A stretch of 64,000 nt of DNA from the IMG/VR virus record IMGVR_UViG_2721755646_000010; one strand, given 5' to 3'. A program made the position numbers. Positions 42,001 to 51,000 of the stretch are shown piece by piece; the first letter of the stretch is position 1, and every line of letters begins with the position of its first letter. Origin of the DNA: a virus. Taxonomy: Duplodnaviria > Heunggongvirae > Uroviricota > Caudoviricetes.

Positions 42001-45000
42001 CATGTAGATATGATTATGGGGAGCCATGTATTGAAAGATATGCCACTAAGAAAACAGGCTGAAATATTATTTTGTTTAGGGGGGGTTTTCTGTAAATACT
42101 CATCGAGTGATATGTTTGGTACAGAGTATGATTCTCCTGAGATTCTACGGAGATATGCAAATGGATTGATTGAACAAGCTTATAAAACAGATCCTCAGGT
42201 ATTTGGCTCAGTTTATTATTACAATGATATTTTAGACAGGCTACAAGGAAGAAATAATGTTTTTACTTGTACCGCTGTGCTGACTGATATGCTAACGGAG
42301 CATGCAAAAGAATCTTTTCCTGAAATATTTTCATTGTATTATCCTGTTGCGTGGCGTTGATTTAGAGACCCATGGCTGGTTCCCGATACAGATGGCGCAC
42401 TCATCACCGGACTGACCTTTCTTGACCCCAAAGATGCCACACGGGTTCAGGGTTTTTTTCAGCATTTGCAGGTCAGGTTTGGTGACGGGCCGTGGCAGGA
42501 TGTTAAGGGGCTGGATGAAGTGGGCAGTGATACAGGCAGAACAGGAGAATGACATGAACATATTAAAAAAAATTATGCAGCGTCTGTGCGGTTGCGGAAA
42601 GCATGATGACCGTGAAAACGGGGAGTTACTTACAGCACAGCTGCGACTGGGACCGGCAGACATTCTGGAGTCCGATGAGAATGGTATTATCCCGGAGCAG
42701 GACAGGGTAATCACGCAGGTGGTGATACTGGATGCGGATAAAAAGCAGATACAGTGCGTGGTAAGACCGCTGCAAATCCTGCGTGCTGACGGGACGTGGG
42801 AAAATATTGGCGGGATGAAATAGCCCGACAGCTTCACAAAAACCGGAGTCCGGCTCCGGTTTTTGTTGTCATGTATGGGGGCTGTTTGTTATGACTCCCT
42901 GTGTTTGGAATGAATATTTAAATAGGGAGTTTTGTCATGCCGTTAACATCAGCTATTGCATCCAATTCATTTTCCACCGGAATGCAGGTTCTTCGTGCTC
43001 AAATGGCCGCCAGTGGCGGTGGAGAAATTACAGTAGGCGGGCAGACGGTCCGTATCACATAGGTTCGATGCCCAATTATACTGGATAAACCAGAAGAAGG
43101 TGTGTTTGTTAAAAATTCAGAAGGTTCTTTGGTTTGTACCTTATTTGATTCGGTTTCTTTTTCTCATTTGGTTCGCGACGGTGGGAAGCACCCGCTAACA
43201 CGAGAACCAATAACGTCATCAATGATTGTAAGTCAAGAACAATGTATTTATGACCAAACCAAAGGAAACTTTGTCATAAAGGATAAGTGAAATAAATATT
43301 ACCCAAGCTATATGTTAACTGCCAGTTGCTTATATGAAATGCTACAGATGTTCAGGGTATAAGGATGTGGTAATTGGTGTACTGGATGCAGCTAAAAAGC
43401 ATATACAGTGAGTGGTGAGGCCGCTGCAAATCTGGCGTGCTGACGGGGAAATATTGGCGGGATGAAATAGCCGACGGATTCACAAAAACCGGAGTCCGGC
43501 TCCGGTTTTTGTTGTCATGTCAGGGAGATGTTTGTTATGAAGCCAGAGGAAATATTTATCTGTATGAAGGAATATGGTAATGCCTGGATTAGTATCATAT
43601 ATATCATCGACTTCATTCGCGAATGAGATGGCGGAGATGCGTCAGCAGGTAATGGAAGGGCAGATTGGTGGATTTCTCCTGGGAGGGGAGAGAGTTAGAG
43701 TTTCTTATTTATTTCAATTGCATTAATATCTTGAATGGATTACATAGAGTTAATGTATCCAGTACTCCCTATTCTCTTGCATATAATACATGTTGCAACT
43801 TACATCTCAGCGCTATGAAAAAACACCACCTCTCTCTTTATGAAATTCTGGATTTACCAAGCGCTAATTTATCATTTCAATCTACCTTTAAGTATTGCAT
43901 TTATCTCCCTACGAGGTCATACTTTAGGAAGTTAAATATGAATGATAATATACCTACAGCGCGAAATCACAAACAATCGACTTGTATTACAGAAAAAACA
44001 TGCCTATATTTTTAAACTTCACAGCAGGAAGTATCTTACCTGAGAATGAGCTAGCATCTTTACGTTATATTGTGCAGCAAAATCAAAATGATACTGTAAT
44101 CATAAAAGAACGTTATAAAATGGATATCCGTTATATCGAATCAGTCAATGGTTTTACAGTAAATCCTGTATGCAGTAATCATTTCTCCATATTTATGGCG
44201 AGACAAAACACTATTGCTCGCAACCTGGAACAGCAGATCAACAACGGACGAAGTTTTGCACAAATATCTCAGGATTTTATGCTTCAATTATCTTCAAATA
44301 TAGGATGGAAAAAAGGGGCCGAAAACGCCCTTAAAAATAAAATCCATTCTCATTCATTTGTTGTAAATCCTGATGAATTCTCTTGCGACACACAATTTCT
44401 TAAGTGCCCAATAACATTATGCGTTCCAGAAAAAGGGGTTTTTGTCAAGAATGCACTGAACTCCAACATATGCACTCTTTATGATAAGTCTGCGTTCATG
44501 AATCTCACAAGAGAACATCTACCCCACCCTCTCAGCAGGGAAAAGATAGTAAAAGAAATGATTATTGAAAGGAATATGTGTTATTTTGACACCATAAGTC
44601 AGCATTTCATAATTATGGATGCAGACCAACAGAAACAGCATTGTAAATAAAATGTAATAATTACATACTATTAGTGATTCTCATGCATCGTAAGCGGCTC
44701 GCCAGAACCGTATTGATATTTACTGAGGAGCCTGTACATAGATTTGTGTAATTGCCTGATTTTGATATGTTCAATCCAACATCAAAAGCAGGTTAATTTA
44801 TGGACGAAAAACAGTTGCAGGCTCTGGCTAACGAACTGGCCAAAAATCTCAAAACCCCTGAAGATCTCAGCCAGTTCGATCGCCTGCTGAAGAAAATCAG
44901 CGTTGAGGCAGCTCTCAACGCTGAAATGTCCCACCATCTGGGCTACGATAAAAACCAGCCTAAACCGGGTGCCAACTCCCGCAATGGCTATTCCACAAAG

Positions 45001-48000: not shown

Positions 48001-51000
48001 AGCTGTGCATCGTGCATATGGTGCGCAACAGCCTGCGGTTCGTTTCCTGGAAGGACTACAAAGCCGTCACCCGCGACCTGAAAGCCATCTACCAGGCCCC
48101 CACAGAAGAAGCAGGCCAGCAGGCGCTGGAAGCGTTCGCCAGCGCCTGGGACAGTCGCTACCCGCAGATAAGCCGGAGCTGGCAGGCAAACTGGACCAAC
48201 CTGGCGATGTTCTTCGCTTACCCGGCAGATATCCGCAAAGTCATCTACACAACCAACGCCATCGAGTCGCTGAACAGCGTAATCCGGCATGCCATCAAAA
48301 AACGCAAGGTGTTCCCGACGGATGACTCAGTGAAAAAGGTCGTGTGGCTGGCAATCCAGGCGGCTTCACAGAAATGGACGATGCCACTGCGGGACTGGCG
48401 TATGGCAATGAGCCGCTTTATTATCGAGTTCGGTGACCGCCTGGACGGTCACTTCTGAGAAAAGGCATTTACACAGAATCGTGTACAGGGTCGATTTTAC
48501 TCGTTAATTAGCGAACAAACCACTCGTCAGCAGACTCCCAGGTATCTTTCAGCGTCTCCTGAACAAAAGTTTTTGCAGAATCTTTATCGGCGGTGCGAGT
48601 AACTGAAAGGCCATCGTTGCTGGTGGATTTGATGATCACTTCTACATCGTCATAACGTTTACTGACACGTCGCAGCATTTCTTGTTGCAGGGCAGGAACA
48701 GAACCTTTTGGCATTTTGTTGATTTTGGCTGCGGGGTATCTGTGGGGCATATATGGGACATAAAAAGGCCTCAAATAAACAGCAAAATCGAGATTAGGGA
48801 TTTTTAGAAAAAATACAACCATCTGAAAAAACTTAGAAAACACCCAAAAACCCACAGAATAGTAAAAAACATCTATGAATTATGGATTTCAAGAGTCATT
48901 CAATCTAACTAATTGATAAATAAAAAATTAACTTTTCATCGCTTCGTTATGGGGCATGGTTGGGGCAAACTCGCTTAACTGTGTATTTAACAGCGTTACC
49001 TGCGCATTATTATTTTCTGACATCCATTTCCCGTACACCTGAAACACCATTTGCGCATCTGCATGGCCCATCTGGTTTGCAATGAATGCCGGGTTAGCTC
49101 CTGCTGTTAACGACCAGCAGGCATAAGTGTGTCTCGACTGATACGATTTGCGATGGCGGATTCCGGCACGCTTTACCGCTGCGTCCCACATCTGCCTTAT
49201 TGAGTCAACGGTAAAATGGTCGCCATAATTTTTTACTTTCGCTGACACTTCAGGTTGAAAAACAAAGGTACATTTTTGTTTCTCTGTTCTGCCGAATTCT
49301 CTGAGGTGAACATCGATGATATGCTCTTTGCTCAGTCTCGTTAGTGCCATCTGACTCCGGAGAGCGTCGATTGCGGGCTTAATAAGGTGAATCACACGAT
49401 TGGTTCCCGCCTGTGTTTTTGGTACTGTAAAACGGTCTTTTGCCAGATTTCTTCTGATTATCATTCTGCCATTGCGCAAGATGGTTGCGGTTTTTCTTCA
49501 TCATTTTCTTCTTCTGTTTCCTGCTTAGCAGACAGTTCGCGGTTAACTTCTTCCAGGATATCTTTTTCCGGTGTATGTCGTGCAGCAGTGAGAGTTTCCT
49601 TGCTGGGGTTCTCGTGATCAGTCTCCGTTAAGTAGGCGTTGATATACCCCTGAAGGCGTCCCGGGTAGTGATAAAACTCAGGGTGAGCGCTCCGGATAAG
49701 TGCAAAAATAGCGGCGCGGGAATAGTCCAGAATACCCGGGGTTGCGCGAAGTGCTGCGGACCATTCTTTGAACGGACTTTCTCTTTTCAGGACGATTTCT
49801 TTTGCGCGACGATAAACGCTGCCCGGAATTTCATAAATATTAAAATCCATCGGAAGTGTGGCTGCTGCAATCTCCACATCCAGCGTATCGAAGGTGTGTA
49901 CTAAATTCGGATTGCGATCGGTTTTGTTCCCGCCACCGGCATTTGCACCGGAAGCCGTACGGGTGATACGCGAAACACGATTTCCTTTCATCCACTCTTT
50001 TGTCAGCAGACCCCGATCAGTGTAGTCAGCGTCCAGGTATGCCTCGAAAAAAGCAGTTATCAGTCCCAGGTCTGAATTACCGGGATTAGGGAAAACTTTG
50101 TCAGTGTCGCGTACCAGTTTGTGAAGGTCGCGAATCTCCAGCGGGTCGAGCAGCTTTGTTTTGTGAGAAATGGCCAGGGCAGTAACAGCCGGCAGTTCTT
50201 CCGCCCGTGCTATATGTAATGCCTGAAGTTCTTCCCGTGCAACGTGCGTTACTGGTTTTTCGCTGCCGTGTTGCGCAAGCCAGCGAATGGGCAGCTCCTG
50301 ACCAGAAACCGGCAGGAGCATATTCTCCTCAATCTCCGTCATGTCTTCGCCGTTGACGTTGGTATTGTCAGTACTGGCTGGTTTCTCCTGCACGGAGGGA
50401 GAGGGCGCGATAAATACCATTGTAATGCCATCTTCCCCGCCTTTTTCGTATCGGTTGCAGAATTCGGTATCAAACACGCCTTCAGGTGGAAGGTCATTCA
50501 CAACGGGTAAATGGACGCGAACGGGTTTTTTAAAGTCGTCTTCATCATAATCGTTGTCATCCATTGCGGTAATGCAGCGGGAGATGGCAACAGATAATTT
50601 TTTTGCTGTAGTCCAGTAAAAACCACCTTTAATTCCCAGACGTTTTCTGACTTTGTCATTTTTTGCTTCGCAATATAGCGCAAATTCTTCTTTATCAGTG
50701 CTCATTGATAAACCTCATTACAGATTTAAGGGTGAACAAATCCCTGCCATTGCTGGCATTTTTAATCCGTTGGTATGGTGTTAATATGGCTGGAGGGTTA
50801 TCCAGCCGGTGTTTCGTTATTCAGGTACAGCGATACTTTTTTTACCGGGAGGCATTCACCAGAAATTTTTTGCTCGTCTCTTGCCTGGAGGCAGGATTCT
50901 TTACTGGCATAAATTCCGGTAATCACATTCTGTGATTCACCCGTTATAAGAAAAACCGTCATCATCAGTGCAAATGCTGAAGTCATTGACGTTCTCCGAA

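Follow-up and report, generated by a model that had tools for sequence, protein, structure and literature searches.

Organization of the nested insertion sequences

The 64,000-nucleotide stretch of DNA analysed here (the window, from IMG/VR record IMGVR_UViG_2721755646_000010) contains a nested pair of insertion sequences (ISs), in which an element of the IS256 family is interrupted by a complete copy of the IS66-family element ISEc8. Coordinates are window positions unless positions in Sakai or in a locus record are named; protein families were assigned with Pfam, and gene and element labels were taken from the Prokaryotic Genome Annotation Pipeline (PGAP) and the Sakai record. The nested structure is already known, being annotated in Sakai, and its two components are catalogued, ordinary element types. 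The Sakai record gives the same nesting, with 'ISEc8 Family: IS66' at 2206654-2209095 between IS256-type pieces in 'prophage Sp12'. From left to right, the pair consists of the following features.

44728..45195, plus strand: outer element, left part, with the left inverted repeat and the first 132 transposase codons (ATG at 44800)
44728..44756: left inverted repeat of the outer element
45188..45195, unstranded: target-site duplication CTGATGTC, left copy, 8 bp
45196..47637, genes on the minus strand: complete ISEc8 (IS66 family), 2442 bp, 100% identical to O157:H7 copies and annotated in Sakai at the same locus
45196..45208, plus strand: terminal inverted repeat GTAAGCGTACAGC of ISEc8, tnpC-side end
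45233..46771, minus strand: tnpC, DDE transposase, 512 amino acids (DDE_Tnp_IS66, E=2.1e-106; zf-IS66, LZ_Tnp_IS66 and DDE_Tnp_IS66_C; WP_000998048.1)
46821..47168, minus strand: tnpB (IS66 Orf2), 115 amino acids (TnpB_IS66, E=1.2e-38; WP_000612591.1)
47165..47545, minus strand: tnpA, helix-turn-helix accessory protein, 126 amino acids from the ATG at 47545 (HTH_Tnp_1, E=1.8e-12; WP_001171554.1)
47625..47637, minus strand: terminal inverted repeat of ISEc8, tnpA-side end
47638..47645, unstranded: target-site duplication CTGATGTC, right copy, 8 bp
47646..48492, plus strand: outer element, right part, with transposase codons 133-402 (the stop codon ends at 48458) and the right inverted repeat
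48464..48492: right inverted repeat of the outer element

The inner element carries the complete tnpA/tnpB/tnpC set of three open reading frames (ORFs) of the IS66 family; tnpB overlaps the stop codon of tnpA by 4 bp, and an alternative GTG start for tnpA at 47566 gives a protein of 133 amino acids. Its full 2442 bp are 100% identical to copies that PGAP labels 'IS66-like element ISEc8', many of which are found in O157:H7 genomes, and the name used here rests on the labels that PGAP and the Sakai curators give to such identical copies. The terminal inverted repeat GTAAGCGTACAGC is exact over 13/13 positions and degenerate beyond, and the two matches to it in the window (0.04 expected by chance) are the two ends of ISEc8. 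Han and colleagues are said to have described in 2001 that IS66-family terminal inverted repeats start with GTAAGCG, and both ends fit this pattern. Since all three ORFs and both ends are intact and the sequence is identical to other genomic copies, this ISEc8 copy is presumably still active. ISEc8-type sequence was matched in 4230 of the 5426 complete E. coli genomes that were also searched for empty sites and junctions. Sakai and FRIK804 each possess nine copies of the element, which ranks second after IS629 (PMC7430833).

Insertion of ISEc8 into an IS256-family transposase gene

The two copies of CTGATGTC abut the repeat ends of ISEc8 exactly, and the chance of an exact match between 8-mers at these fixed positions is approximately 1.5e-5 (4^-8). 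As CTGATGTC occurs seven times in the window, the weight is carried by this abutment and not by its mere presence. IS66 itself is reported to generate 8-bp duplications (PMC6778807, citing Machida 1984). Removal in silico of 45196-47645, that is of ISEc8 and one copy of the duplication, joins 44800-45195 to 47646-48458 and yields a single ORF of 402 codons that reads KELYDADV/SPALVSKV across the junction. The restored protein matches Transposase_mut (PF00872; E=7.6e-119) and is hence of the Mutator/IS256 type. The outer element is broken exactly where ISEc8 begins and ends, and a single CTGATGTC is present in the uninterrupted copies of O55:H7, 493/89 and LSU61. In O55:H7 strain CB9615, the outer element is nucleotide-identical over its entire length and encodes an intact IS256-family transposase, WP_000343700.1, with 100% amino-acid identity to the protein restored from the window; outside the insert, the region 44300-48890 differs from the empty O55:H7 locus by one mismatch, located in nleG7. 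The natural empty sites and the identity to CB9615 directly prove a simple insertion, with no decay since. Because ISEc8 interrupts the outer transposase gene between codons 132 and 133, ahead of the part that encodes the MULE/DDE core (MULE residues 183-260), the N-terminal region is cut off from the catalytic core and the outer element is non-autonomous.

A first-pass annotation of the window, made from the sequence alone, had anticipated much of this structure. Its limits for the IS66-type element (45196-47637, 2442 bp) are exact, and the flanking 8-bp direct repeats and the continuous IS256-family frame (YDADV/SPALV) that it read are borne out. It also reported the terminal inverted repeats of ISEc8, but gave their length as 12 instead of 13 bp. 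The outer element, for which it proposed limits of 44731-48489, in fact extends 3 bp further at each end: alignment with copies of IS1414, ISEc39 and two other IS256-family elements places the termini at 44728 (GAGCCTGTACA...) and 48492 (...TGTACAGGGTC). The outer inverted repeats are imperfect as described, with 20/26 matches over the 26-bp span given earlier, but the true ends, which are common to the IS1414 and ISEc39 copies, extend them to 22/29. The left end is supported further by TUM3755 (L012), in which the sequence downstream of nleG7 is identical up to 44727 and then diverges. This break at the very same base hints at an older rearrangement at the left end of the outer element; past 44727, the TUM3755 sequence resembles, by eye, an IS66-family transposase fragment.

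Without the insert, the outer element measures 1315 bp, and the whole nested unit 3.77 kb. A single long Transposase_mut ORF, a length of about 1.3 kb and imperfect inverted repeats of approximately 25-30 bp are all IS256-family traits; the 8-9 bp target duplication of the family is missing, which bears on the history of this copy and not on its family membership. PGAP labels the left part 'IS256 family transposase, missing C-terminus' in an identical locus, and the locus is 100% identical over 4.7 kb in many O157:H7 genomes.

Empty and filled sites in E. coli genomes

The excised locus with flanks (2251 bp) was used as the query for the empty site, which the first-pass annotation had proposed to compare in related strains and which is indeed present in O55:H7, 493/89, LSU61 and others. 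It aligns in one piece at 99.9-100% identity in O157:H- 493/89, LSU61 and F3113 and in the O55:H7 genomes CB9615, RM12579, 2013C-4465, DEC5B and DEC5D. A ninth empty site is found in PV15-279, where the query aligns in two pieces owing to an IS1203 element, and TB182A aligns partly. In O157:H7 PV15-279 (L018, 2001-4522), the outer element lacks ISEc8 and is split near its 3' end by IS1203/IS629; two different insertion sequences have thus entered the outer element on independent occasions, in separate lineages.

The left junction of the filled site was found in 227 and the right junction in 223 of the 5426 genomes, and among the matches listed all filled genomes are O157:H7 or unlabelled with an O157-type context. 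O55:H7, 493/89 and LSU61 have been called ancestral strains (PMC10758439). With the site empty in these early-branching strains and filled in typical O157:H7, the insertion of ISEc8 postdates the divergence from O55:H7, 493/89 and LSU61. An intact outer element is found in the early-branching strains at this locus only, and the other E. coli matches sampled are either fragmentary or no more than about 88% identical.

Position within prophage Sp12

Two neighbouring genes define the right-hand surroundings of the pair.

48508-48750: dinI-like gene
48928-49479, minus strand: first gene of prophage 2, encoding an integrase without its N-terminus

In Sakai, the nleG2-4/nleG3/nleG7 array is followed by the nested pair, the dinI-like gene and then the border between Sp12 and Sp11, which corresponds to approximately window position 48891 and lies roughly 400 bp to the right of the pair. 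In O55:H7, from which the window diverges at about 48891, the same dinI gene adjoins a truncated ydfJ, and Sp11, the second prophage, is absent. Based on the Sakai annotation and this point of divergence, the pair lies inside prophage 1 (Sp12), between nleG7 and the dinI-like gene. The earlier proposal that it marks a recombination-prone junction between the effector array and prophage 2 must therefore be revised: the pair does not mark the junction, about 400 bp away, but recombination does take place through the inner ISEc8 and an inverted copy in Sp9, with 16 genomes carrying the exchanged arrangement. The ORF of the prophage 2 integrase overlaps one that is annotated in an identical locus as a truncated RecE-type exonuclease. 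Sakai (L002, 7974-9283) has one more insertion, an IS629/IS1203 that separates the outer element from dinI; as the window lacks it, the window must stem from a different O157:H7 strain.

Recombination with the Sp9 copy of ISEc8

The Sp9 copy of ISEc8 in Sakai (1807305-1809746) has the opposite orientation to the Sp12 copy, from which it is separated by about 397 kb, and carries its own target duplication, GTTTTTCG. Exchanged junctions between Sp12 and Sp9 are present in 16 genomes (from Korea, Canada, the USA and the UK), as opposed to 209 with a contiguous locus, counted with 1.5-kb flanks; together these account for nearly all of the 227 carriers. An initial count of 225 intact loci was discarded, as ISEc8 and one flank alone already cover 81% of that query.

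In FORC_044, 8368 and PA20, the halves of the locus lie apart, each still joined to a full ISEc8, and the gene arrangement is the same in all three. The new partners are nleH1-2, nleF and an IS1414 remnant on one side and espO1-2, nleG and espM1 on the other, which are the flanks of the Sp9 ISEc8 copy in Sakai. Both junctions were read in FORC_044 and 8368 and carry swapped 8-mers, CTGATGTC/ISEc8/GTTTTTCG and GTTTTTCG/ISEc8/CTGATGTC, the accepted signature of homologous recombination between IS66 copies (PMC6778807). As the 8-mers are swapped and the partners match the Sp9 flanks, the exchange can be assigned to recombination between the two ISEc8 copies. In 8368 and PA20, the halves are about 400 kb apart and inverted, which verifies an inversion of approximately 400 kb in these two strains. 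In FORC_044, they are 170 kb apart and in the same orientation, indicating a further rearrangement in this genome.

Of two strains from Alberta cattle hide, 8368 is inverted and 3384 is not. A laboratory origin of the inversion was considered, but the records of 20R2R (Pennsylvania), which we take to derive from PA20, and of RV06 say no more than 'culture mutant'. Strain 4276 (NZ_CP017442.1) was considered as a further Sp9/Sp12 recombinant and ruled out because both of its ISEc8 loci are intact. Compared with 3384 (NZ_CP017440.1), these loci occupy swapped positions and orientations, which points to a larger inversion with endpoints outside both.

The dif site is located midway between Sp6 and Sp14 (PMC7430833), and the inverted segment hence probably includes the terminus. 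Given that 16 of about 227 genomes, from four countries, are exchanged and that 8368 is inverted while 3384 is not, we tentatively raise the possibility, which we consider somewhat less probable than its converse, that the Sp12 and Sp9 copies form a recurrent and possibly reversible invertible segment of about 400 kb near the replication terminus of O157:H7.

An IS1414 remnant is found about 250 bp from the Sp9 copy (L010, 3101-3735; Sakai L015, 6390-7058), and PGAP annotates in this remnant a 21-amino-acid fragment of an 'EAST1 family heat-stable enterotoxin'. A preference of ISEc8 for IS256-type targets was considered and dropped, as the Sp9 copy is flanked by AT-rich sequence located about 250 bp outside the annotated IS1414 remnant.

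Origin of the nested structure

Taken together, the locus almost certainly arose by simple nested transposition of ISEc8 into an IS256-family element, followed by recombination of this ISEc8 with the Sp9 copy, and nothing found contradicts the nested insertion. The target would have been an intact 1315-bp IS256-family element at the right-hand end of lambdoid prophage Sp12, with nleG7 on one side and the dinI-like gene on the other. On the branch that gave rise to typical O157:H7, ISEc8 would have transposed into codon 132/133 of the outer transposase gene. Judging by what is known of other IS66-family elements, the ISEc8 transposase probably cleaved the target with an 8-bp stagger, and repair of the gaps would then have duplicated CTGATGTC. 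The outer element would thereby have lost its self-mobility, and ISEc8 would have become a 2.4-kb portable patch of homology, through which RecA-type recombination with the inverted Sp9 copy is likely to have exchanged the flanks.

The account has three weaker points. First, a target duplication of the outer element was not found when its flanks, TTTACTGAG (44719-44727) and GATTTTACT (48493-48501), were compared at several end offsets; an imperfect TTTACT resemblance was judged to be a chance match in AT-rich DNA. Second, the empty site of the outer element, searched for with the joined flanks 44300-44727 and 48493-48900, was found in 0 of the 5426 genomes. With neither a duplication nor an empty site, the arrival of the outer element cannot be reconstructed; an older rearrangement may have replaced the sequence that originally lay to its right. 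Third, 16 is a count of genomes and may exceed the number of independent inversion events.

Among the alternatives, the least improbable is that homologous recombination brought in an already nested module from a different phage or strain. The lambdoid prophages of O157 often exchange segments (PMC7430833, PMC8743559), but the single mismatch (in nleG7) between the flanks over 44300-48890 and the empty O55:H7 locus, together with the finding of the nested junction in no other context except the Sp9-recombinant form, makes an import improbable, and transposition in situ is the simpler account. Less probable still is that the 3.77-kb unit is a compound element mobile as a whole: both outer inverted repeats are still there, but the outer transposase is interrupted, its uninterrupted form is confined to the same locus in early-branching strains (other sampled matches being fragments or at most about 88% identical), and the junctions in every genome examined show either the original context or the Sp9-recombinant form. 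That the two IS256-type pieces are unrelated fragments brought beside ISEc8 by recombination or deletion, with no single insertion, could draw on the abundance of IS scars in the region and on the missing duplication and empty site of the outer element, but it is refuted, as the pieces share one 8-mer and join to the base into a 402-amino-acid ORF, and O55:H7, 493/89 and LSU61 naturally carry the joined sequence as an uninterrupted element in the same setting between nleG7 and dinI.

An astA-like frame in the outer element

The right part of the outer element contains one more feature, in a reading frame different from that of the transposase.

47965..48081, plus strand: dead astA (EAST1)-like frame

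This frame is identical to astA of an IS1414 copy (L004) at 105/117 nucleotides. Its start codon is changed from ATG to ACG, no in-frame start codon is present, and Cys27 is replaced by Phe. An inactivated astA variant, 'V22', has been described in 202 of 258 O157:H7 strains (PMC12585946), and the frame in the window may correspond to it.

Significance

The nested pair is a textbook case of one IS inserted into another and has little consequence for new biology. Its filled or empty state is a clean and irreversible marker that separates typical O157:H7 from O55:H7, sorbitol-fermenting O157:H- 493/89, LSU61 and a few atypical strains, and the structure explains why neither the astA-like sequence nor the IS256-type transposase at this locus is functional. 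The analysis also provides a concrete 2.4-kb repeat pair behind a 400-kb structural variant, which can confuse assembly and typing by pulsed-field gel electrophoresis or optical maps. The main published survey of large rearrangements in O157:H7 deliberately set aside repeats of less than 5 kb, and an IS66 boundary appears in it only once (PMC8743559); given this cut-off, inversions via such short repeats may be under-reported.

Comparison with known systems

The inner element does not differ from the ISEc8 of O157:H7 and is one of the resident copies. The outer element resembles IS1414 in its length class of 1315 bp, its terminal sequence GAGCCTGTACATAGATTTGTGTAATTGCC, its single Transposase_mut gene of 402 amino acids and the embedded astA-homologous frame. 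However, its nucleotide identity is 87.9% to an IS1414 copy (74.5% to ISEc39), the astA frame is dead and PGAP labels it only 'IS256 family'. For these reasons, the outer element is a sister of IS1414 and not IS1414 itself. The Sakai curators annotate only the 3' piece of the outer element as a repeat region and label this right-hand piece 'ISEic2 Family: IS256 partial'; a kinship with ISEic2 is suggested by that label. The exchange with Sp9 has a close parallel in the Agrobacterium plasmid pAt15955, in which two IS66 copies, each with its own 8-bp duplication, recombined to leave mixed flanking 8-mers (PMC6778807). In contrast to the deletion that occurred in pAt15955, the two ISEc8 copies in O157:H7 are inverted relative to each other, and their recombination results in an inversion of about 400 kb.

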